IMG/VR virus record: IMGVR_UViG_3300015608_003951
Span: 98,307-162,306 of that record
Reading direction: 5' to 3' (one strand)
DNA: 64,000 nt
From: a virus
Lineage: Duplodnaviria > Caudoviricetes
Below, one piece after another: positions 3,648-61,100 of this stretch. The translations under genes were made by a program, and so were the position numbers. Numbering within the stretch: position 1 is the stretch's first letter; every line of letters starts with the position of its first letter. The notes beneath the pieces are model-generated. The model had not been told where the DNA came from, made no database searches, and was given only the letters and a program-made list of their open reading frames with translations.

Positions 3648-4985
3648 TTAAAAAAACAAGCCGGCCACCACCCGTAGGCAGCGCCGGCTCGTAGCTTGTA
3701 CTCGATTTAAGAACGGCACGTTGTCGTCGTTGCCGTAGGACTCGCTGTGCGCCGCGTTCTGCTCATGCCCCAAGGGGCCCTTGCCGCACACCTGGATCTG
3801 GAGATCGACGGGGGCAGGGCCCCGAATCGTGTCCAGGTCGAGCGGGGTCTCCAGCAGCTTCCGGTAGGGGCTGTCCGCGGGGAGGGGGGTCCAGTACTGG
3901 AAGCTGAGGCTGGTCCCCGTGTTCTTCCCGGTCTCGGTGGCCTTGTTGGCGCGAGCAGTGGCCGTGATCACCCCGTCGAACAGGGACGCCCTGTGCGGGT
4001 GCTTGCACTGCTTGCACTCGATCACCTCGACAAGCTGCATCGTCTGCCGGCAGGCGGGGCAGGGCAGCCGCTGCTGCACGCGGTTGTCGATCTCCGCGTC
4101 CGTGAGGCGAGTGTTCGCCATGTCGATCACCTCATGCTGGCAGCTCGGACAGTTCCAGCTCCGGGTGTCGATCGTCATGTTGCCCCCACAGGAGACGCAG
4201 TTCTTGCGGAGGATTCCCTGGAAGGAGGCCGCCCCCTCGTACCCCCTGCCGCCGACCAGCTCCCTGAAGTTGGTCATGGAGGCGTTGAACACGAAGCGCC
4301 GCCCGTCGATCCTCGGGAGACCTTGGGCTGCGTAGGGGCAGTTGCGGCCCTGACCCATCTTGTAGTCCATGTAGGGCTGGCCGCGCCGGTCCATGCGGGT
4401 GGACGGGACCGCGTAGAAGGGGTGGAGGATCGCGATGCCGAAGGCGCGGCCGGCCCTCCGCGTCAGCGAGCCCTTCGTCACGTACCTGCGCGCCTTGTCG
4501 TCCCACTTGGTGTTCTCGTGGATCACCCGGCAGCCCCCGCACAGCGCCGCAGAGTTCGCGTCGGCGTACGGGTACTCCGGGGCGGCGCACACGAAGGACT
4601 TCCTCGTGCCCGGAGCGTACTCGTCGTAGTGGTCCACGCCGCGCTTGTAGAGCTCCGTGACCTCCTGGATCGTGTAGAGGGCCTCGTTGTTGGGCCCCCT
4701 CATCTGCGAGCCATCGGCTGCCAGCCGGGGGATCGCCACCTTGTTCTTGTAGGACCCCGGGATGAGGACGAACGAGATGGAGACGCCCAGGGGGAAGCGC
4801 CACGTCTCGACGTACTCACGCCGAGACCCGCCGGAGCCGCCCCGGGGCGCAGAGAAGCTCTGCTCGGGAGGGATGAAGGAGGCGCCAAAGCTCGGCAAGC
4901 CTGCGGGAGGAGGCTCCTTGCCGAAGGCGTGCGTCGTGACAGGGGGCGGCGGCGGGGGAGGAGAATCGTCGTTTCGGTTGTTCAT
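3648..4985 (-). CDS. putative ssDNA-binding protein with zinc-finger insert
   Basis: Lies between primase and polymerase; multiple CxxC; SSB-type DDNVPF tail followed by in-frame TTA at 3708-3710 (probable true end). Confidence 0.6.
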   Translation of the reverse strand: MNNRNDDSPPPPPPPVTTHAFGKEPPPAGLPSFGASFIPPEQSFSAPRGGSGGSRREYVETWRFPLGVSISFVLIPGSYKNKVAIPRLAADGSQMRGPNNEALYTIQEVTELYKRGVDHYDEYAPGTRKSFVCAAPEYPYADANSAALCGGCRVIHENTKWDDKARRYVTKGSLTRRAGRAFGIAILHPFYAVPSTRMDRRGQPYMDYKMGQGRNCPYAAQGLPRIDGRRFVFNASMTNFRELVGGRGYEGAASFQGILRKNCVSCGGNMTIDTRSWNCPSCQHEVIDMANTRLTDAEIDNRVQQRLPCPACRQTMQLVEVIECKQCKHPHRASLFDGVITATARANKATETGKNTGTSLSFQYWTPLPADSPYRKLLETPLDLDTIRGPAPVDLQIQVCGKGPLGHEQNAAHSESYGNDDNVPFLNRVQATSRRCLRVVAGLFF

Positions 4986-7421: not shown

Positions 7422-7424
7422 GCT

Positions 7425-9015: not shown

Positions 9016-10459
9016 AAATACTCTCCGTTCTGGGGGTGTAGGGCCCCCCTTGCTCCACAGGCCAAGACCTGAGAGCGCGTTTTGTCTTGGCCAGCATCGC
9101 CTCTGTCACCGGGTGCATGTCGGCCAGGATGAGGACCTGGCGAACGTTGTTGGTCGCTGACGGCCGCAGGATCCGCCCGATCATCTGCTGGATAAGGCCT
9201 ACGTCTACCGCAGGCTCGTGGAGGACGAGGGTGTCCCTGGAAGGGTCGTCCAACCCCTCCCGGCCGTAGCGGGTTATCGACAGCAGGATAGGTCGGGCGC
9301 ACAGGGGCGCCCTCTTTTCGAGAGGGATTTCGTACGCCAGAGCGCCCACCGTGGGTTGAAGGTTCAGGAGTGCGGCCAACCTCTTCTTCCGCTCCTCGTC
9401 CGTTTTCGTGTCCACCAGCGGCTCACCTGCCAGATCGGCAGCTAGGTTCGTCAGGGCATGTAGCGACCTGGTGAGCAGCAAGGGGCGCCTGCCATCGCGG
9501 AGCAGCTTCTGTAGAAGTCTCGTGACCGCACGGACTCGGGGAGGGTCGTCAGCGAGCCGAGCCCCGATCAGCGCGAGGCTCTGTTCCGTGCTGAAGTCGG
9601 GTTCGAGTCTCGCAGGCGTGGGAGGTAGCTGGAGTACGCGCACCTCCGGAGTGAAGGGGGGTTTTAGCCTTTTGAACAGCGTGCCGCCAAGGTGGACGCC
9701 AACGAGCTCATCCATCCCATCTCTCCTTGTGGGGGTGGCCGATAGCGATATCCGTTGCCCGTGGAAGAGCCCCGCACAGCGGCTGTACGTGTTGGAGCCC
9801 AGGTGGTGACCCTCGTCGTAGAATACCGTGCCGTAGAACGCGCGTTGCTCGTCCGTGGGCACGATGTCTGCGAGGCGCGAGTACAGCGTCAGGGTGAAGG
9901 CAGCGCGTGCCCAGCCAGTACGCCCTGACCACACGTGAGGCCGGGAGGCCCACTTGTGCCGATCCATGCCCCGGTAGTCCGTGTGTTTGGACAGCGCCTC
10001 CACCCACTGCTCTAGCAACACGTTGTTGTCCACGACGATCAGGCAGGGCTTCGCGGTACGTATCGCGTGTTCGATGGCAATCACGGTCTTGCCTGCCCCG
10101 CAGTACAGCTGGAGGGTGCCGTCCAGGCCGGTGCTGAGGGCCTCCAGCGCGTCGTGTTGCAGCCGTTCGCCCCCAGGGACCGCATAGCGATCGAGTACGA
10201 TGTTGCTCGTAGCCGTGCCCCCGTAGGAGTTGGCGAGGATCCTACGGTCGTTAAGCTTTATGCCGAAGTGGTTCCCCTTGCCCGTGCCCAGGACCATGTC
10301 CCGATAGAGCCCCGCCCAGTTGCGCGGCAGCGCGACGAAGTCGCCTTGCAGCCCGTACCCTGGCTCCGACCTCAGCCAGGGCAGTTGCCTCTCGATTATC
10401 TCGTAGACGACAACGGAGCTCGGCAGGCACAACCGGTAGTCCACATAACCTTCTGCCAC
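8996..10459 (-). CDS. SF2 DExH helicase (UvsW/Rad25-like)
   Basis: GAGKT, DEGHH, SATP, EGLD, QMIGRILR; GGAGG + GTG start at 10459. Confidence 0.9.
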   Translation of the reverse strand: MAEGYVDYRLCLPSSVVVYEIIERQLPWLRSEPGYGLQGDFVALPRNWAGLYRDMVLGTGKGNHFGIKLNDRRILANSYGGTATSNIVLDRYAVPGGERLQHDALEALSTGLDGTLQLYCGAGKTVIAIEHAIRTAKPCLIVVDNNVLLEQWVEALSKHTDYRGMDRHKWASRPHVWSGRTGWARAAFTLTLYSRLADIVPTDEQRAFYGTVFYDEGHHLGSNTYSRCAGLFHGQRISLSATPTRRDGMDELVGVHLGGTLFKRLKPPFTPEVRVLQLPPTPARLEPDFSTEQSLALIGARLADDPPRVRAVTRLLQKLLRDGRRPLLLTRSLHALTNLAADLAGEPLVDTKTDEERKKRLAALLNLQPTVGALAYEIPLEKRAPLCARPILLSITRYGREGLDDPSRDTLVLHEPAVDVGLIQQMIGRILRPSATNNVRQVLILADMHPVTEAMLAKTKRALRSWPVEQGGPYTPRTESIFDYISS

Positions 10460-11045: not shown

Positions 11046-11095
11046 GGTGTGCCCTTTCGCTCCTCTTCTTCCCGAATACCGACTACTCTTGGGGC

Positions 11096-12463
11096 ATGCG
11101 CAACTTCTCCGGCCTGGTTCTGGACCCCTACGACGACCCGTCCAGGGTGCTCGTTTCTGCGGTTTTCCCGCACGGCACGCCTCCCGTGCTCAAGAGTGCG
11201 GCGGACCTGAGCGCCAAGCTAGCGTCCCTGCCGGACGCCCTCTTCGCCCTCCGGCTCACCAACGAGGGGGAGTCGATGCGCAAGCTGGCGACGGTGGACG
11301 CGGGCAACACCGCGCTCAGCACCTTGTATTTCATGCACCTGGGCGGGGTTCTGCCCCCCGAAGCGCAGAAGATGGCGGCAGCCAACCTGTGCTTGGCCTC
11401 TGACTGGTACGGGCTCAGGCGCCCCGATAGCCTGGAAAAGATCGCTTTCGGCGGCCTCATCATGAAGGGGCTGGGAGCCGTGGGTAAGTCGGTGGTGAAC
11501 AACCCCCTGGGCGCTGTGGGCAAGGTCATGACGGGGATGAGCCTGGCGGGTGCTGGCAAGGCCATGGGTGCTAACTTGAGTCAAGCCGCTGGAGCTGGCG
11601 GCAGCGTCCTCCCCCTCAGCTCGTTTGGAGGTTTAACCGTGAAGCTCGCCGACCTTTCAGGCACGGACGTGATGCCGTACCAAGAGAACAAGCCCAAGAA
11701 GCCGGCCTTTCAAGAGTACGGCACCATGAAGCACGCGTACCTCGACGTGTCCGGGAGGGACAACCAGCCGGATCTCGTCAAGAGGGCTGGCGGGAGGTTC
11801 TGCCTCGCCAACCCTTCCAGGTACCCGATCGACGACGCCCTCCAGATCAAGACGGCCAGCGAGTACTTCGACGATAACTACCGCAGCATGAGCCCCGTGG
11901 TGCGCCGGGAGTATGCGACCAACCTCTACAAGCGGGCCGAAGAGTGCGCTTTCGCGGTGTCGGAAGACGTGCAGCGCTATGGCGCCCCTACGCTGGGGTC
12001 TCACGAACACTGCAAGGAGGCCTGGGCTGTGCGCAGGCGCTTTGCAGAGGAGAAGGACGTAGGGCTCCTGGACAAGATCGCCTCTGCGCACCTCGACCTG
12101 GCGCTCCCCAACGAGGACTTTGCTGCGCTCATGCACGCCTTCGATAAGAAGGCGGGGCTGGATCGCCTCTACGACACGCACATCACCGACCCCTGGGGCT
12201 GCCTGTTCGCTCCCGTGAAGCTCGCTGAGTTTAGCGAGATCCTGGGTACGGACATGATCACGGCCACAGGTCTGCACAGCGCAGCCCAGACGGAGACGGG
12301 AAGGGTCTCCCTCAACAGGCTCTACGACAAGGCCTTCGTGCTGAAGTTCATGAGCGACCCCGTGGGCACGTACAAGTCGTTGCCTGTCGAACAGCGCAAG
12401 CTGCTGGGCAGGGTGGCCATGTCCAACGGCAGGGATGGTCGAGGGCTGCACGTTGGGCACTGA
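11096..12463 (+). CDS. putative virion/head protein(s); possibly two genes split at TTA
   Basis: Rich in K-x-A motifs; in-frame TTA 11633-11635 then GTG 11639 with GGAGGT SD. Confidence 0.6.
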   Translation: MRNFSGLVLDPYDDPSRVLVSAVFPHGTPPVLKSAADLSAKLASLPDALFALRLTNEGESMRKLATVDAGNTALSTLYFMHLGGVLPPEAQKMAAANLCLASDWYGLRRPDSLEKIAFGGLIMKGLGAVGKSVVNNPLGAVGKVMTGMSLAGAGKAMGANLSQAAGAGGSVLPLSSFGGLTVKLADLSGTDVMPYQENKPKKPAFQEYGTMKHAYLDVSGRDNQPDLVKRAGGRFCLANPSRYPIDDALQIKTASEYFDDNYRSMSPVVRREYATNLYKRAEECAFAVSEDVQRYGAPTLGSHEHCKEAWAVRRRFAEEKDVGLLDKIASAHLDLALPNEDFAALMHAFDKKAGLDRLYDTHITDPWGCLFAPVKLAEFSEILGTDMITATGLHSAAQTETGRVSLNRLYDKAFVLKFMSDPVGTYKSLPVEQRKLLGRVAMSNGRDGRGLHVGH

Positions 12464-13286
12464 TCTTTTCGAAACGGAGCTCGACCGGGTGGAGCGGTTC
12501 CTCCTGGAGCAGGCGCCCAAAGACGGCGAGTTGCAGCCCTTCGGTGAGTCCACAGACGTGGTGGTGGACGCCTTGCCCTTGGAGGAGCACCACCACGAGA
12601 TACATCTTCCCCCGCACCCGGCCACACTGAACGCCAGTACAGTTTGGAGCTTGCCCGAGGCTCACCCGCTGGTCCTGAGCATGCTGCTGCTCAAGAAGTA
12701 CGAGCTGGACTGGCTGGGCTGGACCATGTCGACCGTGGAGCACGCTATCGAGGACGCCTTTGGCCCAGTTCTCCCTGTGAACCTGTCCAAGGTCATGGCC
12801 TGTCAGCTGGCGCACACCAGCGAAGGTCCGTGGACCCACTGGGAGATGTTTTTGCCGGTGTGTTCGGCCTTCAACAGCGTACTGCCCGACTTCGAGCAGA
12901 TGCAGGTGCCCAGCGCCGCTGAGGCCACGTTCGCCGTACGGACGCTCGACATCATCGACACAAGACCGGACCCTTGGTCCACCGAACTCAAACGCTTCCT
13001 ATCGACCGTGTACCAGCACGATCAGGTGGCCATGGGGGTGGATGCTTGCGCCTTCATCACGGTCCAGGGCCACTGGCTTGACATGGACCGCGGACAGATC
13101 CTTCGCAGGTGGCCGGAGGTGAAGCGTACTGGCAAGGCCCCAGAGGGTGACTCGATGGAGGACGAGCAGCTGAGGAAGATGCTGGAGATCGAGCTCTACC
13201 TTGACCAGCAGAGGAAACTCCTTGAGCAACAACTCCACATCGCGAGGCGCTTATGCGTAGCCCGATTAAGCTCGCCAACTACCTAG
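12435..13286 (+). CDS. hypothetical protein in structural operon
   Basis: Probable end at TTA 13251-13253 overlapping the next ATG. Confidence 0.65.
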   Translation: MVEGCTLGTDLFETELDRVERFLLEQAPKDGELQPFGESTDVVVDALPLEEHHHEIHLPPHPATLNASTVWSLPEAHPLVLSMLLLKKYELDWLGWTMSTVEHAIEDAFGPVLPVNLSKVMACQLAHTSEGPWTHWEMFLPVCSAFNSVLPDFEQMQVPSAAEATFAVRTLDIIDTRPDPWSTELKRFLSTVYQHDQVAMGVDACAFITVQGHWLDMDRGQILRRWPEVKRTGKAPEGDSMEDEQLRKMLEIELYLDQQRKLLEQQLHIARRLCVARLSSPTT

Positions 13287-14110: not shown

Positions 14111-14116
14111 TCGAGA

Positions 14117-16669
14117 ATGTTCGCTGACGCAGCCGTAGCCGGGTCTTCGACCAGATACTCCAGGACCCGTGGCCGGATCCAGGGCGGGGAGAGCATGGGT
14201 ATCGCGTACCCACACCCCTGGTTTGATCTGGCCACTACGTATATGCCGCAGAACATGAAGTCCCTCTTCAGGTGGCTTCGGCATTACTTCTTGCTCAACG
14301 GGTTCTTCAACGTCGTCGTAAGTAAGCTCGCGGAGTACCCGATCACGGCCCTCTTTTTCGAGGGCAAGAACGAAGAGATCTCCCGGAAGTGGCAGCGGTA
14401 CTTCCAGGAGCACCTGCGCTACCGGCTCTTTCAGCTCGAAGTAGGCCTCGATTACTTCGTCTACGGGAACGCGTTCATAAGTCTTCGCTACCCCTTCACC
14501 AAGTTCCTCAGGTGTACGGGGTGTGGCTGGCAGAGCGCGGCCAGGTCTTGCAGGGACCACTGGACCTTCTCGGGCCATGACTTCAACCTGACCTGCCCGA
14601 AGTGTAAGCACTCAGGGCCCGCTAAGGTGCACGACGTGACCACCAAGGTGGCCTCGGGGGCACGCCTCATCCGTTGGAACCCGGAAGCCATTACCATCCG
14701 GTACAACGAGGTGAGCGGACACAAGACGTTCTACTACGATCTTCCAGGGCACTTGCGCAATGACATCATCATGGGGCGCAAGCACGTGGTGGAGGAGATC
14801 CCCCAGACGTTCATCGAGGCCGCCAGGAAGAACATCGGGGTGACTATCCCCTATGAGCAGCTGTTTCACATGGCCCGTCCCTCCATTTCAGGGTTCGATC
14901 GCGGCTGGGGCATCCCGCTCCTCCTTTGCGTGATCAAGGAGGGGTTCCAGATGCAGGTGCTTCAGAAGGCGAACGAGGTGATCCTGATGGAGCACCTCCA
15001 GCCCCTGCGCACGATCTTCCCTCAGCCCGGTGCGGGCTCTGCGGACCCTTACACGATGACCTCCTTGCCCCTGTGGAAGGAGCAGATGTCGAAGGAGATC
15101 GCGCGCTGGAGGTGGGATCCGGCGTACATCCCTGTCATGCCCCTACCGATAGGCCAACAGACCATTGGTGGCGAGGGGAAGGCCCTGCTCCTGGATCAGC
15201 AAATCCAGTCCAAGGCCGAGGCCATCGTGGTCCAGCTCGGCGTCCCCAAAGAGATTATCTTCGGGGGAGCAAGCTGGTCAGGCGGTACCGTGGCGATGCG
15301 CGCGGTGGAGAACTTCTTCCTCGGGTACCTGGAGGAACACAAGGCCCTTCTGCGCTTTGTCGTGGAGCAGCTGCGCGTTGCCCTCGATTGGCCCGAGGTC
15401 GATGCGCACTTCAAGCCCTTCCGTATGGCAGATGACATGCAGAGGCAGCAGCTGCTCTTGCAGGCTGTCCAGCTCAACACCATGTCCCGGGAGACCTGGC
15501 TTGGCCAGATGGACTTCGACTACAAGCAGGAGATGCAGCGATCTGAACGGGAGATCGATGACCAGCTCAAGCTACAGAAGAAGCAACAGATCGGCGCAGC
15601 CAAGCTCCAGGCGGAAGTAGCTGCACTGAGCGCCGCGACGGCAGCGGAGAACGGTCAGGCTCAGCAGGCTATGCAGCAAGGCCCGCTCCCCGGGGAGCCG
15701 GGAGCACCAGATTCGCTGACCCCAGAGCAAGCGCAGCAGCAGGCTGCCCAACAGCAGCCCCCGGCAGCCCCCGGCCAGGGTGGCGCTGCCCCCGCCCCAG
15801 ACGCTGTCGATCAGTTCAACAACGTCATTTCAAGCCAACTTACGCAGAGCTCTGCGAACCGGCCATCCGCGGGTCTGGACATGGTTGCGGCCTCCTACGC
15901 CAAGCAGATCTCGCAGATGCAGCCGCAAGAGGCCAACTCCATGTTGCAGGCTCTCCAGCAGCAAAGCCCCGACCTCTACGCCATGGTCATGCAGAAGCTT
16001 CAAGAAATGGGGGCTAGTCCCACCCTTTCCGGCCCAGGCGCGGTCCAACAGCCCGCTGTGGATATGGCCCCCCTGCCGGAGAAACTCCCTCCGAGAAGGG
16101 CTTCTGTTTTAGGGGCTAAAAAACACGGACTTTCCCCCCGGAAGTCCGTGCGCTCAGTCGGCGATGACCTGCTTGCCGAAGGGCATTTTGGTCTCTTTGT
16201 TGGCGCCGATCAGGCACCAGTGCACGGGGAAGGTCGGCGGTTTGGGCGGACAGGCGCCATCACCGTCCGTCATGTAGATCACGGCCTCGGCGCCGAGCTC
16301 GGCAGCCCTCGCCAGGGGCTGAACGAAGTCGGTGCCACCCCTGCCGACGATCTGGAACTTCCCGGTGTTCAGATCGTCGACGGTGAGCATCTGCTCCTTG
16401 TGGACCTTCGTGTCTGCTTGCAGCAGCAGCAGCTCGTGGAGCCCGAGCCCCATCAGGACCCCTCGGATCTCCCGGATGGCGATGGTGACCTGCTCACCGC
16501 CCATCGAGCCCGACGTGTCGATGATCACGACGACCTTGGCCGTGCTGCCGATCTCACCCGGGTAGATGATGCCGCAGTCGTTCACGAAGGTCATCGGGTG
16601 CGGCCTGCTGTAGGAGGCCATGCTGTTGTGCGCCGTGTTGGCAGAGCTCACCGTGGCCCGGAGGCTTGA
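14117..16669 (+). CDS. portal protein with zinc-ribbon insert
   Basis: DYFVYGNAF, GWGIPLL, LGVPKEIIFGG; CTGC/CPKC insert; Gln/Pro-rich tail. Probable true end at TTA 16109-16111; the remainder is antisense to the VWA gene. Confidence 0.72.
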   Translation: MFADAAVAGSSTRYSRTRGRIQGGESMGIAYPHPWFDLATTYMPQNMKSLFRWLRHYFLLNGFFNVVVSKLAEYPITALFFEGKNEEISRKWQRYFQEHLRYRLFQLEVGLDYFVYGNAFISLRYPFTKFLRCTGCGWQSAARSCRDHWTFSGHDFNLTCPKCKHSGPAKVHDVTTKVASGARLIRWNPEAITIRYNEVSGHKTFYYDLPGHLRNDIIMGRKHVVEEIPQTFIEAARKNIGVTIPYEQLFHMARPSISGFDRGWGIPLLLCVIKEGFQMQVLQKANEVILMEHLQPLRTIFPQPGAGSADPYTMTSLPLWKEQMSKEIARWRWDPAYIPVMPLPIGQQTIGGEGKALLLDQQIQSKAEAIVVQLGVPKEIIFGGASWSGGTVAMRAVENFFLGYLEEHKALLRFVVEQLRVALDWPEVDAHFKPFRMADDMQRQQLLLQAVQLNTMSRETWLGQMDFDYKQEMQRSEREIDDQLKLQKKQQIGAAKLQAEVAALSAATAAENGQAQQAMQQGPLPGEPGAPDSLTPEQAQQQAAQQQPPAAPGQGGAAPAPDAVDQFNNVISSQLTQSSANRPSAGLDMVAASYAKQISQMQPQEANSMLQALQQQSPDLYAMVMQKLQEMGASPTLSGPGAVQQPAVDMAPLPEKLPPRRASVLGAKKHGLSPRKSVRSVGDDLLAEGHFGLFVGADQAPVHGEGRRFGRTGAITVRHVDHGLGAELGSPRQGLNEVGATPADDLELPGVQIVDGEHLLLVDLRVCLQQQQLVEPEPHQDPSDLPDGDGDLLTAHRARRVDDHDDLGRAADLTRVDDAAVVHEGHRVRPAVGGHAVVRRVGRAHRGPEA
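16115..16150 (-). terminator. intrinsic terminator between convergent portal and VWA genes
   Basis: 9-bp stem CACGGACTT/AAGTCCGTG followed on minus strand by TTTTTTAGC. Confidence 0.8.
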
Positions 16670-17371
16670 GGCAAGCCGGGAGTACCACGGGATCTTGGGC
16701 GGCGCGACGGTGACGCGGGCCCACTCCGCGATGTCGCCGGGCACAGAGCCTCGCCCGGACCCGCCTTGCAGCGCGATGTCGTTGGCCAGGGCGACGGCCG
16801 CGTGCCGCGTGTGCGCCTGCGTTTTGGAAGGTACGAGGGCGTTCAACTTATCGTTGAGCTCGTCGTCCTCCACGTCGCACCGGTAGTTGCCGGGGTGCCG
16901 GATCGGGTTGGGGCTGAGCTTGAACAGCAGCGCGAGGATCTGCTCCTCGATCGAGGGCTCGCCCTTCGTCTCGATGTGGCGGTACAGGTCGAGGAGGGTG
17001 CCGCTCATCCCCACGTCCGACGCCTTGATGTAGCCGGGGGGTAGCCGCATCGAGGAGCGGTGCACCGCCTCGTTGGCGGCCAGGAAGTCGGCCTTGTACA
17101 GGGCCGCCTCCTTGAACCCGTCCGTTTTGTCTTGGTAGACCATGTCGTAGACGACATGGAACACTATGCGTAGAAGTGCCCCGGCGGCCTCGTCGAGAGA
17201 GAGGGCGCCGAACCACTTCGGGTTGTACGCGAGCACGTGCTTAGAGGACAGCGCCATCTGTGCAACCGCCTCCGTCGGGTACGGAGACAGGAGATGGATG
17301 ACGCTGGCGAAGTACGGGAACTGCCTCTTCAGGCGCGCTCGCGCGGACACGAACTCTGTAGGCTCTGGCAT
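16154..17371 (-). CDS. VWA-domain protein with degenerate metallopeptidase-like N-terminus
   Basis: MIDAS DTSGS, GRGGTDF, YMTDG; adjacent to AAA gene. Confidence 0.88.
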   Translation of the reverse strand: MPEPTEFVSARARLKRQFPYFASVIHLLSPYPTEAVAQMALSSKHVLAYNPKWFGALSLDEAAGALLRIVFHVVYDMVYQDKTDGFKEAALYKADFLAANEAVHRSSMRLPPGYIKASDVGMSGTLLDLYRHIETKGEPSIEEQILALLFKLSPNPIRHPGNYRCDVEDDELNDKLNALVPSKTQAHTRHAAVALANDIALQGGSGRGSVPGDIAEWARVTVAPPKIPWYSRLASSLRATVSSANTAHNSMASYSRPHPMTFVNDCGIIYPGEIGSTAKVVVIIDTSGSMGGEQVTIAIREIRGVLMGLGLHELLLLQADTKVHKEQMLTVDDLNTGKFQIVGRGGTDFVQPLARAAELGAEAVIYMTDGDGACPPKPPTFPVHWCLIGANKETKMPFGKQVIAD

Positions 17372-17430
17372 GTCGCTCCAGGGTGCACACATCCCCCTCC
17401 CGAAGGAGGGGGAGGGGGATGTGGCTTCGG

Positions 17431-42813: not shown

Positions 42814-42844
42814 CCTTCCCTCCTTCCTTACCTTCCTTAGCTAA

Positions 42845-43348: not shown

Positions 43349-43353
43349 ATATT

Positions 43354-43361
43354 CTTATGCC
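43354..43361 (-). promoter_or_regulatory. example of recurrent GG[ACG]ATAA[CG] promoter-like motif
   Basis: About 10 copies upstream of minus-strand gene starts and of the ncRNA. Confidence 0.55.
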
Positions 43362-43373
43362 CGATTTTACCCG

Positions 43374-46803: not shown

Positions 46804-49800
46804 TTATCCCTCCTTATACAGAAAGCTTGGCCTGTCGTGCACATGTACGATCAGCGCGGTAGTGCGTACTCGGGCAAGGTATCCGGCCTGCCCATCACGC
46901 ATCAGCGCATCGCCAGGATGTACTGGCGTGCTGGCCCCCGTGCGCTCGACCAAGAACCCATGCTCAAGGAAGATGGCGTTGAAATCACAAACGCCCCACC
47001 CCGGAGTCCACGCTTCTACATGGACCCCCACCACGCGCTGGCCGACATTAGCGAAGATGTCCTCAATGCAGAAGCGTTGTTGCGGTGTTAGGCCATCGAG
47101 GGACGTGTAGGCGTCGAAGGCTATAGACCCGAATGGGCTACGGGGGTCCGGCGGCATCAGGAAAGCTTGTCTTATCAGGGCCAAAGCGGGGGATTCCTCC
47201 ATAGCAAGAGGTAGTGGCCGGGGCGGTGGAACCGTAGGTACAGCCGTGAAGTCTCTACCTCCTCCAGATGTAGCACCTCCCCCGCAGAGACCGTTGAGCT
47301 CGAATAGGCCTTTCCTGATAGGTGTTCTAGCGTTACGTGATTCTCCCTCAGGGGGATGACCAGGGCCTCTATCATGCTGGTGCTGAAACTCTCGATGCAG
47401 GGGTCTCCCATGCCGCCCTCAGCGACGATCTTGCACTTACCCTCGTCTACGCCTACCCCAGTCATCGCAGCTATTCTGTGGGTGTACCTGCGGCTAAGAT
47501 CCCCGGCGCGGGGTCGTAGCAGGGGGGAACGTGGAGATTCGGGTGGCAGAATCTTGGCTATCACATGCATGACGACCCCCCTAAAGACAGCATGAACGCG
47601 ATGCCGGACCCGCGCAGGATCATGTGGCGCAGGACGCCTGACGTATGCACGAGGTCTCCGCTGTGCAGGGCGTCCTGCGTTTCATCTACCAAGGCGATGC
47701 GCCCGAAGGAGATAAGACACGAGCAGGTGCGGACCACGACGTGGTTGTCTACTACCTCGGTCTTGGCGATCGAAGTGAAACGGATGCCTAGATCCGCCAG
47801 GCCAAAGCGTACGCAGGGCAGGTCCATGGGGTCCACCGGATGACCGGCTTCGAGAGCGTGGAGAAGCTGAGCCCAGGGGCTGTTAGGCGTCAGGTCCGCG
47901 GGGAACCAACCGCGCTTCACGAAGAGTTCAAGTGCTGGCCTGTTGGTTCCGATGTAATATGATGCCGTAGCTGTCCCGGTGATGGCGCTCGCTACGGTGC
48001 TCAGCGAACCGACAGTGCCGGTCGTTAGGGCGGTGCTCAGCGAATCTGGGGTGTACGTCGTCATGTGTGTTTCCACCTTCATTTGGGCGCGCCCTGGGCT
48101 TCAAGCAAGCAAGAAGACCGAGCCGTTCAAGTAACAGGCGCTTGGGGTGTACTGGCCATAGGTCTTGTCATTGAGCACGAGCAAGTCCCCTTCCTCCAGC
48201 GTAGACAAACCGTTGAAGTCAATGGACCCTGAGGTGAGGGCCACGAAGTAAACCGTTCCCGAGATACGCAGGGGGGTCAGGTCCCCATCGAACTCCACCA
48301 CGCGTTTGGGGGTGGGCCCCTCCAACGCGCCGTTCAACATCAATTGCTGGCCACGTGTCACTTTTCGGTAATGCCGCCGCCCCCCTGAACCTCGGGAGAT
48401 GTCGATAGACTCTGCCTTGATGATAGCGCCCTCGTAGTCTTTACGGAAGGCACGAAGGGCCGCTGGGCTGAAGTATCCACGAAGAAGTTTTACCATCTAC
48501 CTGCCTGCCCCCGGAATGTGACGAGCCACATAGTTTGGTCCGCTTTAACGTAGTAAAGCATAGTGTCCTGACGATTAAGCACGAGGGCTCCCCCCTTGCT
48601 GCAAGATACATAGGACCTGGGCCTCAGCGGTTGCCGTAGGACGATATCGCAGGAATCGGTGGGCAATAGGAGGGTCGTATGTACGTAGGAGGCAGCGCAC
48701 CAAGGATCCCACTCGAAGGGGCTCCCCTTCAGCAGCATGTGGTGCGTCGGCACGCCGAACTCGACGAACAGCAGAGATACCGCAGGGTCAACACTTGTGA
48801 GGTGCTTGGTGTCGTGCAGGAGCGGCTCCCCCATGTCCTGCGTGATCTTGTCTAGCACGTCGATGGCCATGTAGTTTTTACATACATGCATCGTCCGGCG
48901 CCAGGTGGAAGGCCAGATGCCTTCCGTGCGTGACCACAAAGTAGGCATGTACGTGCGGATAGCTCAGGTGGAGCAAGTCGCCCGGGGCCATGTCCATGAC
49001 GGTACCTGAAGAGACCCGAGTATATCCCAAGGATAGCAGGAGTACTGCTCCATGCTCGACCTGCTCAGCGTCCCACAGGTTCATGTCGCGCAGCGAGGAA
49101 GCACGAGTTACCCTGAAATCCGCCAACGCCAAACGCATGTGCTGTGTGATCTGGACCTCACGCGCTTTGTCTATCTTGGTATGCCTGCGTGTGGCGAGCG
49201 ACGCCACATCACGCACATAGCCGCGCCTCAACGTGATATGCGGCGACAACACCTCTACTAGACTCATGGATCCTCCTTACCCAAGAACAAGGACTTCGCC
49301 TTGCACATAGAGGGTTTCTCGCTGCGCGGTTTGCGCCGGCACATGCATGATATCCCCTGCATGCAGGGACCTCTTGCACCGGCGTGTGATCTCGATAACC
49401 GAGTTTTGTAGGACCAGAATGTGTAGGTCCGAGAAGTCCTTGAGGTGGCGGGCATACATGCCCCAATGTTCGGTGTTGTGCATGCAGCGCACCCGGCGAC
49501 ACTTAAGATCACCCCCTAGACCCAAGGCGAGTTGTAGTCCCACGGGGATGGGCGTGGTTAGGTACCCAAACCAGAACGAGACAGGTATGTCTCTCAGTGC
49601 CGCCAAACGAGGTACAGCCACGTAGTTCTCGGTGATTTGAATGTCCATAACCACCTCCAGCCCTCACGGTGAGAGCGTTCACTTGGGCACTGCGATGAGG
49701 CAATCGCCGGATATCGCGGCCGTATACCCGAGGGCCACTACCGCGGGGATACCGAAGGTGGGGCTATCCTCATCCGCGCCGGCGAATACCGTCTCCTGGT

Positions 49801-51892
49801 AGAGAGTTTCTTTCAAGCCGATATATATGCGTATTGTGCAAGGCTCCAAGGGGATGATGATGATGCGCACAAACCCAAGCCCCTGCGTGTACATCGGCCA
49901 CTTTCCGCAAGGGCCCTGCATGTATTGCATCTGAATGGGCGTGCCCAACATTAGGGAGAGTTCCTTCAGATCCATGAGCCCGTCCCGAAGGGTCTGGGCA
50001 ACTCTAGGGGCGAACACCCCCCGCTTGTAAACAATCCCGTGCTCCAAGTTCATTGGATCGCCCCCGTGAAAACTAGCACCAACCCCGTCATACACATCAC
50101 GTATACCTCGCAATGTTGCCGACTGTAGACACGGGCGTCTCCAGCCATCATGTACACCCCATCCACCGTGCTGCGCTTTACGGCTACAACGCTTATGTCA
50201 CTGTAACCCTGGGGGGTGGCCATCCCCCAATTGCAATCCTGCTCACGGACAAGGGTGCCACCTGGAAGGCCCATCACAAGGCACAACGGAGGTGGTGCGC
50301 TGTACCAGAACCCGGCGACAGCGCCCCTCTTCCAGGAGAGAAAGGGGGAGGAAGGGTCGCGCATGTAGGACTCGCTGACGAACCCCCTCTTGATGTCAGG
50401 TTTCATCGGATGACCTCAAGAGGATCAGGAGGTAGGGGGCCGGGATGGTTATGTAGAGCCCCATGGAGTCCTCCCTCGCGAACCTTAGCGCGTCTCCAAC
50501 TTCCAACGGTATGTCTGTGCGCGGGAAGAGGGGCCCGACCACCTGGATTCGCACAGGCTTTGTTACAACGACGAGCATGTCCCAGTAGTGGCCTCCAACT
50601 GCACACCCCCAGTTCTCTACCATCGTACAGCGGTGAATCCCCACCGCAGGCCCCCCCACCAGCAGGGAAAGAGCACTCTTGGACCAGCTCTCAGAGGCCA
50701 GCCTCTCTACGAGGGGCGGGGTGAAGTACTTTTGCAGGTGTTCCATCGTAATGGATCATTAGGGTTGAAGAAGACCAGCACCCCTCCGGTCACACCGAGA
50801 TAGGACGCTATCGCTACCTGCCGCGGCACCTCAAGGACATCTCCGGGCTTGATGTCATAGGTCTCAGCGCCGATACTAACCTCGGTCTCGGAGGTGCCTA
50901 GAATGGTGTACTTCTCGAATACGCCGTCGGCCATCATAGACCACGAGGGCACACGGGCCAGCCGGAGCACCCGCTCTGGTGCATAAGCCCCCAAGATCAA
51001 CCGTGCCCTCAGGGGTGCCTCCATCACGTGCCAGCGATCCCGTGGAACCTCTAGGTCCAACTCCATGGCCACCGTTGGGCTTACGTAGCCCGGAATCTTT
51101 ACACAGGGCATGTTAGCCTCCTAGATTCAGCGGTGTACCAGCAAATAGGCCAACACAGGCCCCGGGAACTTGACGGTGCGTGACCTGTTATCGATTACGT
51201 AGACATCCCCCTTCCTGAACCAGAAGCTCCCACCACGGTAGGTCAGCCACTGGTTCTCTAGCGAGAGGAGGATCGGGTCAGTCATCCTTGCGCCGATGCC
51301 AGAGACCAACGGAAAGCTGTCCTGTCCTACGAGCCAGTCGCCGGCCGCAAGCCGCGGACAAAACGCGTTGCCCCCGGAGGGTGCTAGCCCGCCCAGGGCC
51401 AATGACACGAGCACAGGCGCGGCTTCCGTATGCGACAGCATGATGTAAGGCCTCGGGGAGACTGGGTCAGCCCTTAGCGTACACACCAGGGCATCCACCA
51501 TGTGGTCGGCCACGTAGTTTTTGTAATGCATCTCACCGCATCCCCGTGTGACCGAACACCAGCATGCCGCTGGCCGGCGTGAGTATAAGGAGGTCCCTGA
51601 TGTCCCGTGGATCCAACTTGACGACGTCTCCCGCGCTCACAAGAACCGTGGAGCACGTGTACGTCCAGGGGACTTTCGTGTGGAACGACTCTGTTGTAAG
51701 GGTATAAAGCTCGGCACTCTCGTCGCCAGCAACAAAGTCGCAGGGGTCCCACGGCCGGGTATCAATGTGCCCCAAGAGGTCGTAAATCAGCTCGTGGAGC
51801 ACAAGGCGCGCTGGGCCCTCGTCCCCCGCAGCCGCCTGGGTAAGTATCATGCGCGCCACGCTAGGAGTCATGTAGTTTTTGATTACGTGCAC
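46804..51892 (-). repeat. paralog array 1: two PPDPRS-type genes and about 11 family B genes
   Basis: Shared protein motifs without DNA identity. Genes at 46804-47202, 47175-47570, 47561-48082, 48101-48496, 48490-48891, 48878-49267, 49277-49648, 49679-50053, 50050-50406, 50396-50746, 50707-51111, 51127-51531, 51533-51892. Confidence 0.75.
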
Positions 51893-53931: not shown

Positions 53932-54518
53932 GCCACCTCCGTTATTCCTGCTATTAATCGAAGATAGAGAGGACCCGCCGAGGGGGAGTTCTCAAGCATA
54001 CGCAAAGCGGTGTCCACGGCCCAGGAGGGGCGGTAGTTGGGTAGCCAATGATCCCCCATGACCCTGGGCACGAACCTGCCGGCATAGTCCCAGGCGGGGT
54101 ACAGCGGGAACTCCTGCGTGGCATCCCACTCAGCAAGGTTACTGAACCTGGAGTCATGCCCAGTCACGGCCGACAGAATGCTTGAGAGCTCCTCTGTCTT
54201 TGCGCCGATCAGATCCGAGGCGAGGTGGAAAACGGTGGGCCGCAGCCCATTGTAGTGCACGTTGCCCCCGAGCAGCTCGATCAGCCCCGTGGGGACGACA
54301 CTATCGTAGTGTAGCAGGGTGGATCGATCCAGATTTCGAGCGTAGTACTCCGCCGCATTCAGGAGGCAGCTGAAAAACCCTACGCCCAGCCACCCGGACC
54401 CCCTGGATTTTCTGTAGGGTTGGTAAATGAACTGGTTCCCCTCCGAAAGGCCGTAGAGGACCTCCGGCAGGCAAGACCTAGATCTGCTGCTCCTCTGCGA
54501 ACCACAGCATGCTTCCAC
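53928..54518 (-). CDS. hypothetical protein
   Basis: Probable end at TTA 53955-53957. Confidence 0.55.
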   Translation of the reverse strand: MEACCGSQRSSRSRSCLPEVLYGLSEGNQFIYQPYRKSRGSGWLGVGFFSCLLNAAEYYARNLDRSTLLHYDSVVPTGLIELLGGNVHYNGLRPTVFHLASDLIGAKTEELSSILSAVTGHDSRFSNLAEWDATQEFPLYPAWDYAGRFVPRVMGDHWLPNYRPSWAVDTALRMLENSPSAGPLYLRLIAGITEVA

Positions 54519-57488: not shown

Positions 57489-57565
57489 GTGGTCTCCTAC
57501 CTTTTTATACCTTCTTTTCAACGGATCTATGCGTAGCTGAAGCCAGGAGGATAGGATGGGCTGCA

Positions 57566-57850
57566 ATGTCTGCGTATACCCCGCTAAGACCGCACCTCTT
57601 GAGGGGCTCCGGGTTGAATGCGGACATCCGGAACCTGTACGAGATCGTCAACGAGCTGCACGAGATCGCCGTAGCCGCTGCGGGCGGGTCAATATCCATC
57701 ACTCGCCTGAGCCAGGGCGCCCTAAGTGCCCTGCGGCTGGTACGTGCCAGGACAGCGCTAGGACGACGTCTGCGGGAGATGGCGAACCTGTCGGCGGTTG
57801 GGCCGATCGCTCCGGCGCTGGGCATCGGGTCGCTGCTGCCTGCCTTATAG
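57566..57850 (+). CDS. lone plus-strand hypothetical protein
   Basis: TAGGAT 8 nt before ATG; ends TTA-TAG. Confidence 0.5.
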   Translation: MSAYTPLRPHLLRGSGLNADIRNLYEIVNELHEIAVAAAGGSISITRLSQGALSALRLVRARTALGRRLREMANLSAVGPIAPALGIGSLLPAL

Positions 57851-58178: not shown

Positions 58179-61100
58179 TCAAGTAGAACCCTCCGGAAAG
58201 AGCACGATGAACCGGCAAGTCCCTCCCAGGGCCTTTATAGTGGTGCGACCCTCAGAGATCAGAAGTGTCCCTGGCTCTACGGTGTCGTTAGGGTCAAGGG
58301 GGATGCAGCCATGCGTCTTAAGGACCCTGAGGAAGGGAACCTCTGTTGTGTAACCGGCCTTGAGCCTCAGCCCTGTTAGCCTAGAGAGGACGGGGAGCAC
58401 GTATTCTCCCAGACTTGTGGACGTGTTAGGCAGGAGGTTGAGGAGGGGGGATCTCGGGTCAGGCGGTAGGAGTATCTTGCAGGAAGTGTCGATCATCTGC
58501 CTCGGTCGGGGTTGGTGGTTAGAGGGGCAGGGGCTTCATGCGTAAGTCCACACCTTCCTTCTTCGGACAAGGTTTAGCATCACGATCTTGGTCGGGATCA
58601 GCGCTAGCAGGATCTCATCCGGGCCCAGGAAGAGGGGTCTCGGCAGGTACCCCGCCAAGTCCAGAGGGATCGCCGCCTGATCCACGCACACAGTCCAGCT
58701 GGTCCAGTTTTTCAGGAGGAAAAGCTCGCCGGTAACGATAGGCAGCTCTAGCTGCACGGCCAGCCTCTGCACCACGTCCTTCGGCAACGGGTCCATGGTC
58801 TCTCGAATGGGGAGTCCGCTCAAGACTGAGCGTGGGTCAGGTGGAATCAGGATGGTGTAAGCGGTCATAGAGCACGACGATGTAGTAAGGGCCTCGGCCT
58901 GGGTGGTAGATCGAAATGTCGCTCGTTTTGGAGTGGATCAACGTACCCGCCTCCACCCGCCCTCGGGTCATGGCCATGGTCACCGGGCTAAGCGGTATGG
59001 CATAATGCCCACTCAGTATGTTGAAGGTGCCGTGAAAACGCCCACACCAGCCGCCTACAAAGGGCTCTCCCAGCTGAAGGGAGAGGGTCGCCAGCATCCC
59101 CACGTCGAGGCTGTGGTGTAGAGCATCGTCGTGCAGTTGACCTATCGGGCTTCGCGGATCCGGTGGCACCAGAATCCTTTTATTCATGGCTGACCTCCTC
59201 AAACAGGATCAGACCAAATGGCCCATTTGTGGATCGTATCTCTTGGGGGCCCTTGAGCACCTTCCCCGTCGGATGGCTGCATTCGCTCAGCACGATGCAC
59301 ATCACCCCTTGGGGCACGAGCCAGTAGCTTACAACGATGAGGATGGACCATCCAATCCGGATTCGCATATCCAGGAGCAGGGAAAGCCGGGCCAGGGCCT
59401 CGTCGCTAAGCCGCGTTCCCGAGGGGTCCAAGGGCACGTCTATGACGGCCCTTGGATCAGGCGGTACGATTATCTGCATGGTATCCTTTCATTTGTACAG
59501 GAGTACAAGCCTGAACTCTGTGCCGTCCTTGGTGAAGAGAATCTCGTTGGTTACGACGCGTCCTGGTGGGACATTTGTGGTATCCAGCGCTACTCCGTAC
59601 GAACCTGCCCCGACGAGCCAGTACGATGTGAGGAGCATGAACCCCCTATTGAAGGGTATGCCTAGCTGTAGGCTAATCCGTCCGAGGAGCTCTTCAGGGA
59701 GTCCAGCGATGCTCCGTGTAAGCAACACCCTGGTGAACAGCGATCTCGGATCAGGGGGCACGAGTATCGTCATATTCGTGATCAAGGGTCAGCCCCCGTG
59801 TAGAGGAGTAGAACGCTCGCGTGACCCGCCTTGGACGACCCCAGGATCTCGAATCCGGCGTAAAGCCCTGGCGGGTGTGGGCCGAAGGGTTCCAACAATA
59901 GCATGTAACACCCCTCCGACATAATGAACCGCTGGCTAATCCATGTGCCGTGGCCATCTACAAAATGGACACCCGCTAGCATGGGTAGCGTCTCCAACAC
60001 GTCCGGGGGCAGATCCCTCCCGCCAAAGCAGGCGTATGACAGGTACTCTAGGTCCGGCAGTGCAGGTCGGGGGTCGGGGGGTAGGAGGATGCTCAGGTAC
60101 ATGCAATGGGCCTCACGTGAACAGTTGGACTATCCGGAAGGACGTCTTGCTTGCAATGCTATCGCCCCCGGTAATGACAGTACCCCTCGGCACGCCTGTA
60201 TCGTCAAGAGCGAAAGCGTAGATGTCGTGGCTCGTTGCCCATCGAGGCATATGGACGCGAAGGGTGAACCCGCGGCTGAACCGTATGCCTATCAGCACGG
60301 AAAGGGCGTCGAGTTCATTTTGCTCCAGCGGGGTGGTCACTACCTCATAGGGGCGTTCCAGCAGCCACCCAAGGGTGGACCTCGGGTCGGGTGGAAGGAT
60401 CAGGCTGATCTTGTCCACGGTTTAACCCAGGTAGTAGACGAGTACACGCTTCCCTACCTGGAGCGTGTAGTGCATGACCTCATCGGAACCCAGGAGAATG
60501 ACGTCTCCGGGCTTTGCGAGGATCCAGGTGACTGCGTCCTGCGAGGAGCCCGGCTCCAGCGCCACGTAGCCCGGCTCCAGCGCCAGGAGGACAACCCTCG
60601 GATCGGTGGCCGTTGGGGCAGTCCAGGCCAGATTATGCCTCTGGCCTGGTTTAGGCTCGTAAAGGGTTTCCACCCCCAGCGAGCGCCTTTGCAACCGGGG
60701 CAACACCAACAGGACTTTCGCAAGAGTTCCTTGGGTTTCAAGCTTATCCTTCGGGATGCTTGCGATCGTGTGTACAGTCCTGGGCGATACGTGTTCTTTC
60801 AAGTGGTTCATGGGATCACCGTTTCCTCCTGCAAAGAGCCAACACAGGACCAGTGCAGTACACCCAGCAGTCCATGGTCTCCTCCGGGGTTAGCCGGAAC
60901 AGGTCTCCCTTGAACCCGCATACCCCGTCCTGTGTTCCAACGGTGACTATCCTGCCGCGCGTTAGCGTTACCCGAGCGGCCTGCGTAGGGAAGAGCGCTG
61001 CTCGGAACGTGATGGGGCGGAGATCGCTGTGTACAAGAGCGTTCAGCCGGATCCAGATGAGCGGGCCGACACCCTCCAGCCCACAGAAGAGCAACGACTC

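Follow-up and report, generated by a model that had tools for sequence, protein, structure and literature searches.

Does the leucine codon TTA (UUA) end genes in a phage that uses the ribosomes of a bacterial host? The question was raised by a stretch of 64,000 nt (the window) of the wastewater phage record IMGVR_UViG_3300015608_003951, which measures 162,306 bp in total and is about 87% complete. The original prediction held that 12 genes in this window end at an in-frame TTA, either because UUA is a fourth stop codon or because ribosomes stall there. To our knowledge, sense-to-stop reassignment is documented in organelles only, and all known code changes in phages run from stop to sense; a UUA stop in a phage would be the first sense-to-stop change outside organelles. 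Our sequence analysis indicates that TTA very probably marks the translational end of the genes concerned. That UUA serves as a fourth translation-ending codon is the best explanation of these data, and we give it slightly better than an even chance.

TTA at gene ends and inside genes

An in-frame TTA on the strand of its own gene was found at 12 of 12 coordinates (Table 1); in genes on the minus strand it appears as TAA on the plus strand. An independent gene caller based on codon statistics was run over the whole genome with TTA set neutral. With TTA allowed as a stop, the caller returned every one of the 12 sites as a gene end, and TTA was the last codon in 42 of the 190 called genes (about 1 in 5), among them the genes for the major head protein, the portal and an SNF2 helicase. 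The three standard stops remained in use, as had been claimed (TGA, 105 genes; TAA, 28; TAG, 15). The gene model improved when TTA was a stop: 190 genes were called compared to 181 without it, the summed coding score rose and the number of overlapping bases fell slightly. The junction geometries described earlier were also recovered (Table 1), with TTATG stop/start overlaps at 11 of the 42 TTA ends. For several small TTA-ending ORFs the support is coding statistics alone, and since the ORF ending at 57845 is weak and small, TTA could equally be its last sense codon.

Table 1. Coordinates of TTA ends and associated features. Positions refer to the 64,000-nt window unless marked as genome coordinates.
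Feature	Position	Strand	Remarks
TTA, end of 425-aa gene (3708-4985)	3708..3710	-	Table 11 adds 19 codons to TAA at 3648
TTA, end of 156-aa gene (10446-10916)	10446..10448	-	14-nt overlap with helicase GTG at 10459
TTA, end of 179-aa gene (11096-11635)	11633..11635	+	GGAGG precedes; next gene in frame, GTG 11639, 274 aa
TTA, end of 266-aa gene (12453-13253)	13251..13253	+	TTATG overlap with next gene's ATG at 13253
TTA, end of 664-aa portal gene (14117-16111)	16109..16111	+	Table 11 adds 185 codons, antisense to next gene
Convergent gene, DUF2201 VWA-like and metallopeptidase-like domains	16154..17392	-	Pfam PF09967 (E 1.9e-19), PF13203
TTA, end of 225-aa gene (39964-40641)	39964..39966	-	TTA-C-ATG of next gene; sequence context
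TTA, end of 170-aa gene (44706-45218)	44706..44708	-	Terminator hairpin, then Shine-Dalgarno and next ATG
TTA, end of 160-aa gene (47582-48064)	47582..47584	-	TTA-stop gene call; sequence context
TTA, end of 120-aa gene (50749-51111)	50749..50751	-	TTA-CG-ATG; context and gene call
TTA, end of 187-aa gene (53955-54518)	53955..53957	-	GGAGG and next ATG 26 nt downstream; context and gene call
TTA, end of 77-aa ORF (57614-57847)	57845..57847	+	TTA-TAG, TAG directly after; context and gene call
TTA, end of 109-aa gene (58858-59187)	58858..58860	-	TTA-stop gene call
Leader ORF, 18 codons	68676-68732 (genome)		MSTLTPML-TTA-IHLPRGPPL-stop
PTH2-family hydrolase	69062-69382 (genome)		PF01981 E 9e-10, 39 bits vs cut-off 23
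tRNA, 74 nt, anticodon UAA	69856-69929 (genome)		51 bits on Rfam tRNA model

Under table 11, the genome contains 37 in-frame TTA, and 17 of these (46%) are among the final 10 codons of an ORF, where 3.6% of codon positions overall are located (binomial P = 2.6e-15). AGA came second in this enrichment with 12%, and off-frame TTA reached only 2.6% and 8.6%. The next in-frame stop is located at a median of 19 codons past TTA versus 18.5 past canonical stops (Mann-Whitney P = 0.42). The contexts of the sites are diverse, and no conserved sequence was found around the TTA ends beyond the triplet itself. Of 20 long extensions, 17 lose the GC3 of the gene body, about 0.8, immediately past TTA. The GC pattern turns into that of the overlapping frame or strand in the 14 extensions that have an overlapping gene, and the 3 in-frame continuations past TTA each have a start of their own.

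Homologs could be compared at five window sites, and at 5 of 5 their stop or C terminus coincides with TTA. In three genes TTA coincides exactly with the stop codon in L007 and L008, two syntenic relatives. At 10446, ..PSGRR-TTA matches ..PRGRK-stop of L007, and past TTA the codon-position GC shifts to the frame of the helicase. At 11633, L007 and L008 carry two genes (176/178 aa and 276/279 aa) where the phage has one ORF of 455 codons, and their TGA stands in the same alignment column (..SFGG-TTA vs ..FGG-TGA). The TTA at 13251 lines up with TAA in L007 and TAG in L008; a second TTA (13266-13268) is present in the read-through tail of this gene. At 3708, where TTA is codon 426, none of 150 remote homologs aligned past query residue 427, and two (397 aa and 235 aa) terminate precisely at residue 425. 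Among the best 120 of 620 portal homologs most have 637-701 aa, and 20 aligned homologs have VDMRPLPEQRPPRRAxx as a common C-terminal motif and stop 0-4 residues beyond the TTA column. Beyond TTA, the portal ORF of table 11 has an antisense GC pattern and would run about 515 nt into the convergent gene, whose PF09967 and PF13203 domains span residues 12-409 of 412; a hairpin is located between the two genes. The gene ending at 39964 is without available homologs, and its end is based on sequence context and on the GC pattern, which past TTA is that of the next gene's frame. The hairpin after 44706 has a folding energy of -26.2 kcal/mol (z = -3.4) and the tail UUUAGCC, and the gene downstream has its own start; another TTA (44673-44675) is found within the tail motif.

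Internal TTA is purged from the phage genome. The RNAP gene had been said to lack TTA, and indeed its 2804 codons contain none, as is the case for the genes of 1320, 1309 and 1107 aa. We found no TTA inside a gene body backed by homology or strong coding statistics and none at a conserved internal position; in well-scoring genes every in-frame TTA is at an inferred end or within a read-through tail. The only place with a designed internal TTA is the 18-codon leader described below. In-frame TTA is almost absent from the closest relatives (none in L007 or L008, and a single one in both L010 and L011, near a gene end each time). The more distant relative L012 (60% GC) uses 8 TTA in 4,804 codons as ordinary internal Leu, and 2 of these align to CTG-Leu in the helicase of the TTA-stop phage. 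No sign of internal TAG, TGA or TAA, as expected for stop-to-sense recoding, was detected under table 11, with which the coding density is 91% and long genes are intact. The tests of position, homolog ends and gene re-calling thus all support TTA as a gene-ending codon.

A leader, a PTH2-family gene and a tRNA with anticodon UAA

If UUA is a stop, a tRNA-Leu(UAA) might be missing, as was supposed in the original prediction. The phage does encode a tRNA with anticodon UAA, located outside the window on the same strand as a PTH2-family gene and 470 nt downstream of it. This tRNA is not of the Leu type, since the long variable arm is missing (the variable loop is short) and position 73 is G; hence, the supposition has to be amended as regards the anticodon. 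The anticodon loop is CUUAAUC, with U37 and a C31.C39 mismatch. The hydrolase, which we take to be divergent, has EPD in place of the usual DAG motif. A domain search revealed no RF-1, PCRF or Pth1 domain in the phage; the record is about 87% complete, and the remainder may hold a release factor.

We compared this locus with 52 other loci that contain a PTH2 homolog. In 37 of them a stop-reading tRNA is found nearby, with anticodon CUA (35) or UUA (2), but a non-Leu UAA tRNA was found in none of the 52. All leaders found contain the codon cognate to their own tRNA, TAG with CUA and TAA with UUA; TTA with UAA is present only in this phage. The leaders of relatives read [TAG]-LHL(P/S/A)..RGPP and the leader of this phage reads [TTA]-IHLP-RGPP, so that TTA occupies a stop-codon slot. 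By the shared (L/I)HL(P/S/A)..RGPP pattern, the leaders are homologous. The Pth2 gene of 11 loci, from about 9 distinct contigs, has the cognate TAG in its own sequence, at codon 3-5. A PTH2-family gene with a same-strand tRNA no further than about 1 kb away, and a leader or a 5' end of the Pth2 gene in which the cognate codon is followed by RGPP or RAPP, define the module, and this arrangement is found here. The module as judged from these loci is widespread in other phages; a literature search retrieved no publication on a combination of Pth2, suppressor tRNA and RGPP leader.

Proposed release at UUA and alternative readings

How could a chain be released at UUA? We propose four steps, which taken jointly have somewhat less than an even chance of being right. 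First, UUA would be poorly decoded in the infected cell, in which the host has no usable tRNA-Leu(UAA) or that tRNA is disabled; we infer this failure of the host solely from the purging of TTA and the design of the leader. Second, since UUA would not be decoded efficiently, ribosomes would pause there with the protein complete. Third, the chain would be freed without RF1 or RF2, most likely by the Pth2-like hydrolase of the phage or by a rescue factor of the host. Speaking against this, Pth2 enzymes are known for their action on peptidyl-tRNA already off the ribosome and not as codon-directed release factors, and the phage hydrolase is a divergent one. Fourth, the phage tRNA(UAA), presumably weak because of U37 and the C31.C39 mismatch, may be a "suppressor" of a private stop, which together with the RGPP leader would sense the balance of read-through and release and set the expression of the Pth2 operon. 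About 40 TTA-ending genes next to a UUA-reading tRNA should be subject to read-through unless this tRNA is weak or counteracted. Where genes end in an unassigned codon, the usual outcome is tagging by tmRNA and degradation, to the detriment of viruses (PMC6207430), and a phage dependent on a codon of this kind would therefore need its own release route. A wider interpretation, for which we see a possible but rather unlikely case, is that the module is a portable controller of termination and read-through that needs no release factor and takes its specificity from the anticodon. Its retargeting from UAG/UAA to UUA would have produced a private fourth stop, installed and policed by the phage in a host with the standard code.

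The tRNA itself could also be the terminator. It would decode UUA and take the nascent chain, and Pth2 would hydrolyze the unstable peptidyl-tRNA(UAA) on or off the ribosome; tRNA and Pth2 would then jointly release chains without any release factor, and the anticodon would provide the codon specificity. A TTA-gated leader would be autoregulatory in such a system, comparable to the in-frame UGA of prfB. We consider this reading unlikely. The tight linkage of Pth2, tRNA and cognate-codon leader in most related loci, with codon and anticodon covarying, would fit, as would the TAG at codon 3-5 of Pth2 genes, which resembles the prfB logic, the unusual anticodon stem-loop, which should weaken P-site binding, and the lack of backup stops past TTA. 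However, like tRNAs in the TAG-type relatives are conventionally taken as suppressors, that is, as sense readers, and the reading would require that tRNA(UAA) is charged and that long chains can be released by drop-off. We know of no termination by a tRNA and Pth2.

If the change belonged to the host, a bacterium with an altered release factor and without tRNA-Leu(UAA) would read UUA as stop and the phage would only follow its code. The absence of a release factor from the phage and the near absence of TTA from the closest relatives are in line with this, but we regard it as improbable. Sense-to-stop changes were found in our literature search in organelles only, we know of no bacterium with UUA as a stop, and codons with a pyrimidine at position 2 are not accepted by RF1 or RF2. 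Moreover, in the relatives with a shared gene order the same genes stop at TGA, TAA or TAG and not at TTA, and the phage retains a dedicated UAA tRNA and a TTA-gated sensor.

Very improbable is an ordinary Leu codon in about 40 genes that lost their stops and whose products carry C-terminal extensions or are fusions. The phage does have a tRNA with the matching anticodon, and the public gene calls for the contig run through TTA (portal, 808 aa; other products, 445, 291 and 764 aa). Against this, the extensions show no coding signal and pass through real genes in antisense or out of frame, the apparent losses are all to one single codon, TTA coincides with the ends of homologs, internal TTA is purged although L012 uses it, and in the leader TTA replaces TAG or TAA.

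About as improbable is UUA-triggered bypassing or frameshifting or an RNA-level change to UAA. UUA-dependent bypassing was proposed, with partial experimental support, for the terminase of the Streptomyces phage phiHau3 (PMC10732093). In the phage studied here, the flanking genes are separate in relatives and bypassing would thus have nothing to join; a conserved context or landing site is missing; and since A or G directly follows TTA in only 17 of 42 ends, a +1 shift makes no stop. U-to-A editing is not known to us.

A miscalled TAA or TGA has a negligible probability, because contigs from four metagenome runs, each belonging to a different study (2017-2025; one is the likely source study), cover the sites 3708, 10446, 11633, 13251 and 16109 and have no listed difference at these TTA, which thus are not assembly errors, and an artefact is also at odds with the diverse site contexts and leaves the cognate anticodon and the leader unexplained. 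A further 17 differences of lesser support are outside those listed, and the runs listed include none of RNA.

Relation to known codes

Sense codons serve as stops in mitochondria of Thraustochytrium (NCBI table 23, TTA), Scenedesmus (table 22, TCA) and vertebrates (AGA/AGG). As in the phage, the sense codon is missing from gene bodies and placed at gene ends, and in table 23 it is the same codon. However, organelles have tiny genomes with release factors of their own and no longer possess the tRNA, whereas the phage has 162 kb with about 190 genes, uses bacterial ribosomes and all three standard stops and has kept a cognate non-Leu tRNA. Stop-recoded phages (Lak, crAss-like and others) use code 15 (TAG = Gln) or code 4 (TGA = Trp) with phage suppressor tRNAs (bioRxiv 10.1101/2021.08.26.457843). 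They share with this phage a phage-specific departure from the host code and a phage-encoded tRNA that matches the codon concerned, but their change is from stop to sense and within late genes; here it would be from sense to stop, at gene ends only and in all genome modules. A virus would thus hold a codon meaning that departs from the bacterial code in the opposite direction, which raises the sharp mechanistic question of chain release at UUA without a cognate release factor.

The bldA system of Streptomyces and phiHau3 (PMC10732093) likewise have a very rare UUA, one specialized tRNA and a translational control point, in a phage as well; there, UUA is inside ORFs and in the end is translated as Leu or bypassed, so that a single protein results, whereas in our phage it stands at protein ends where relatives have stops. 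In recoded E. coli (PMC6207430), a codon that has neither a reader nor a release factor is resolved by rescue factors, and in prfB autoregulation a factor's own codon in the leader can be a feedback sensor. In that E. coli strain the products are tagged by tmRNA and destroyed, and viruses are blocked. That the present phage prospers with a codon of this kind implies that its chains are released productively. With the other PTH2 loci the phage shares the PTH2-family gene, the adjacent tRNA and the cognate codon a few codons ahead of the arrest motif RGPP. Only in this phage, however, is the gating codon in addition a nonstandard stop for about 40 ordinary genes. The natural swap of TAG/TAA for TTA in this conserved module is an experimental handle on the "orphan" suppressor tRNAs of large phages, and its components may be parts for orthogonal stop codons and genetic isolation in synthetic biology. 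Standard gene callers would misannotate such genomes, and the public calls for this contig probably contain false extensions and one false fusion.

TTA at the ends of genes

The gene caller used here was built from codon statistics, independently of the original prediction, and its first version scored TTA like any other codon. Under the standard bacterial code (table 11), 37 in-frame TTAs were found genome-wide, of which 17 (46%) lay within the last 10 codons of the ORF, compared with 3.6% for codon positions overall (P = 2.6e-15). The codon ranking second in end enrichment reached 12%, and off-frame TTA reached 3 to 9%; thus, the signal is specific to codon and frame. A general AT-richness of gene ends was rejected as the cause, since other A-ending or rare codons did not exceed 12% in the last 10 codons. 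The 12 in-frame TTAs that had been reported in the window were all found, each in frame on the strand of its own gene.

Table 11 and a code with TTA as a stop were then compared with a version of the caller in which TTA was scored neutral. The gene model improved with TTA as a stop: 190 instead of 181 genes were called, the summed score went up, overlapping bases went slightly down, and 12/12 window sites were recovered. The stops used were TGA (105), TTA (42), TAA (28), and TAG (15), and the TTA-ending genes were spread over the whole genome and occurred on either strand. The next in-frame stop followed at a median of 19 codons after TTA and 18.5 codons after canonical stops (P = 0.42), and 11 of the 42 TTA ends were TTATG stop/start overlaps that resemble TGATG. 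TTA behaves like the canonical stops. Two other ideas were rejected: a canonical stop within 3 codons, as expected for backup stops, followed TTA in 9/42 cases versus 22/148 after canonical stops, which is not significant, and a frameshift into a stop would require an A or G after TTA, which was present in just 17/42. Also, no sequence context was apparent around the TTA ends (at most 0.27 bit per position). Some TTA ends precede a terminator hairpin, the tail of which reads UUUAGCC; this motif includes both TTA and TAG, in different frames. The sole in-frame TTA of L010, one of the loci with a PTH2 homolog, is 2 codons 5' of such a hairpin.

An assembly or sequencing artefact is excluded. Contigs of four other runs (one per study, from four studies, one of which also has likely source samples) were compared over window positions 3600 to 17000. 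These contigs covered sites 3708, 10446, 11633, 13251, and 16109, with no entry at these sites in the list of differences, beyond which there are 17 lesser-supported ones. Several studies, dated 2017 to 2025, have metagenome runs from wastewater, activated sludge, and freshwater in which the phage sequence is present; among the runs listed, none was of RNA.

Homolog ends, coding signal, and loss of internal TTA

Five independent lines, among them the stop-like behavior described above, argue that TTA is the real end of these proteins. The best 120 of 620 portal homologs were mostly 637 to 701 aa long, and 20 aligned portal homologs had a C-terminal motif common to all and ended 0 to 4 residues past the column of the phage TTA; table 11 would lengthen the portal by 185 residues, and the added stretch would cross a bona fide DUF2201 gene in antisense. 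A single 455-codon ORF of the phage corresponds to two genes (176/178 and 276/279 aa) in L007 and L008, two relatives with the same gene order. At the junction, L008 has TTCGGAGGT-TGA-C-GTG and the phage has tttGGAGGt-TTA-acc-GTG. In two further genes, TTA aligned exactly with TAA, TAG, or TGA of L007/L008. At site 3708, where TTA is codon 426, none of 150 remote homologs aligned beyond residue 427, and two ended exactly at residue 425. Thus, TTA coincided with a homolog stop or C terminus at all of these genes. For the gene ending at 39964, the homolog search returned the phage's own protein only.

Of the 20 extensions that are 20 codons or longer, 17 lose the gene body's codon-position GC signature directly after TTA. 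Fourteen of these 17 overlap another gene, and the GC pattern there is that of the overlapping gene's frame or strand; the remaining 3 of the 20 are in-frame continuations, each with its own start codon. The public gene calls of the phage contig read through TTA and give a portal of 808 aa and other products of 764, 291, and 445 aa (P0001, P0121, P0241, and P0242), and therefore, databases contain false C-terminal extensions for this phage.

Internal TTA has been purged. L012, a more distant relative of similar GC content, uses TTA as an ordinary Leu codon (8 in 4,804 codons), and two of its TTAs align with CTG-Leu in a phage helicase. With that frequency, the phage should have about 80 internal TTAs, but none was found in well-supported gene bodies. 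In-frame TTA was absent from the nearer relatives L007/L008 and occurred once each in L010 and L011, both times near a gene end, in genes for which no homolog was detectable in the phage.

A tRNA with anticodon UAA, a Pth2 homolog, and a leader

Just two tRNAs are encoded by the phage, and the coordinates of their genes are compiled with those of the other features in the table. The original suggestion of a missing tRNA-Leu(UAA) needs correcting, since a tRNA with anticodon UAA is encoded. This tRNA is not of the Leu type, as its variable loop has 5 nt and its discriminator is G73; its anticodon loop, CUUAAUC, has a pyrimidine at position 37 and is closed by a C31.C39 mismatch. Its body may resemble that of bacterial tRNA-Trp, and a pattern search of IMG/VR for Trp-like UAA tRNAs found nothing. 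A gene for a PTH2-family peptidyl-tRNA hydrolase is located about 470 nt upstream, and upstream of this gene, at genome positions 68676 to 68732, is an 18-codon leader ORF, MSTLTPML-TTA-IHLPRGPPL-stop, the Shine-Dalgarno sequence of which is GGAGG. The 101-aa gene of the module ends in TTA and has a 17-nt overlap with the start of Pth2, and the 134-aa gene is also TTA-ended. Neither of these two neighbors matched Pfam, PHROG, or Atlas; a homolog of the 101-aa protein (58% identical) was found in L011 alone, the closest relative. The RF-1, PCRF, bacterial Pth1, and class Ib aminoacyl-tRNA synthetase families were sought in the phage, the record of which is about 87% complete, and were not found.

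Positions of features in the phage and related loci
Feature	Position	Remarks
UUUAGCC-tailed terminator hairpins	window 44673-44680, 16115-16125; L010:8575-8586	motif common to phage and L010
Multisubunit RNA polymerase, beta and beta' fused in a single 2804-aa ORF	window 20049-28463	
tRNA-Met(CAU), second tRNA	genome 43797-43871	anticodon stem not initiator-like
tRNA, anticodon UAA	genome 69856-69929	74 nt; 51 bits on Rfam model
Whole translation module	genome 68676-69929 (L004:11676-12929), outside window	leader, 101-aa gene, PTH2-like gene, 134-aa gene, tRNA(UAA)
"tRNA-Phe(GAA)" near PTH2 homolog, same strand, without suppressor tRNA	L027:419-493, L054:510-584, L052:3117-3192	

PTH2 homologs were compared in 52 other loci (L010 to L062), comprising 2 Logan, 9 IMG/VR, and 41 metagenome (JGI/ENA) contigs. 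These PTH2-bearing phage contigs have 31 to 71% GC and are up to 407 kb long. At 37 of the 52, the PTH2 homolog is near a tRNA whose anticodon is CUA (35 loci) or UUA (2 loci); a non-Leu UAA tRNA was not found in this set. Where a leader with RGPP/RAPP exists, the neighboring tRNA reads the codon that stands a few positions before this motif: a TAG leader, such as MHH-TAG-LHRSRGPP or MYT-TAG-LHLSRGPP, accompanies a CUA tRNA in 20 loci (about 16 distinct contigs), a TAA leader accompanies a UUA tRNA in two, and a TTA leader accompanies a UAA tRNA in this phage only. Thus, in a regulatory element that is conserved and homologous among the loci, TTA fills a stop-codon slot, with the anticodon changed to match. 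A TAG is also present within the PTH2 gene, at codon 3 to 5, in 11 loci (about 9 distinct contigs). This comparison provides independent evidence that UUA is handled as a stop-like codon by translation in the infected cell and that tRNA(UAA) is its dedicated reader. The "tRNA-Phe(GAA)" is about 0.7 to 0.9 kb upstream of PTH2 in L027 and L054 and about 2 kb downstream in L052; the two inspected, those of L027 and L054, have C33 and an atypical T-loop. They could be another retargeted or degenerate variant. A published description of a module of Pth2, suppressor tRNA, and arrest leader was not found in a literature search.

The claim that TTA is a gene-ending codon in this phage is thus borne out by homolog ends, coding signal, gene re-call, and leader slot, and we consider it very probably real. 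Standard RF1 and RF2 reject U at codon position 2. In the model that we prefer, UUA would lack an efficient decoder in the infected cell, ribosomes would pause there with the complete protein, and the chain would be freed by a route without a release factor. In recoded Escherichia coli, an unassigned codon at gene ends resulted in tagging by tmRNA, and viral proteins were lost (PMC6207430); therefore, a phage relying on one needs a productive release activity, for which the Pth2-like enzyme would be the obvious candidate. Together with the RGPP leader, the weak tRNA(UAA) may act as a sensor: if the leader TTA were read through, the ribosome would reach RGPP and stall, which would open a predicted hairpin that joins the last codons of the leader to the Shine-Dalgarno sequence of the next gene, that of the 101-aa/Pth2 operon, although the 131-nt fold is not significantly better than those of shuffled sequences (z = -0.5). 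In the main rival model, tRNA(UAA) itself would take the chain and Pth2 would hydrolyze it, which would make the tRNA the terminator. Further rivals to pausing and release are a change of the code at the level of the host, plain read-through of TTA, which would give the extended products of table 11, and bypassing at UUA, as proposed for phage phiHau3 (PMC10732093). According to our literature search, sense-to-stop reassignment has been reported only for organellar codes, whereas the present case is a phage; no published case of UUA ending translation in a bacterium or phage was found, and its use here would be a codon reassignment.

The phage, its relatives, and possible hosts

The record, of which the window takes up bases 98,307 to 162,306, is linear, with 162,306 bp, 62% GC, and the above completeness estimated with CheckV, and is broken by a run of 35 N at genome positions 15152 to 15186. 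It encodes, besides the fused 2804-aa RNA polymerase, a portal, a major head protein at genome positions 9164 to 10288, and several helicases. Cultured relatives are distant only (Salmonella phage Arash and Vibrio phages D69/D148/D181, with portals about 30% identical); megablast of the RNA polymerase gene against cultured phages gave no match, and a portal peptide-pattern search in IMG/VR found nothing. The portals of L007 and L008 are 53 to 54% identical to that of the phage. Four more distant portal relatives (L063 to L066, 36 to 49% identity) are on contigs of 6 to 174 kb in MAG bins labeled Myxococcales, Deltaproteobacteria, Anaerolineales, and Desulfatibacillum. The contigs are probably of phage origin and were binned together with bacteria; their labels are at most a weak host hint, too weak for naming a host.

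Window positions 42814 to 43373 (about 560 nt) have no gene call in either gene model and coincide with a structured-RNA candidate; Rfam at gathering thresholds gave no match there. The RNA polymerase ortholog in L008 showed a faint intein match.
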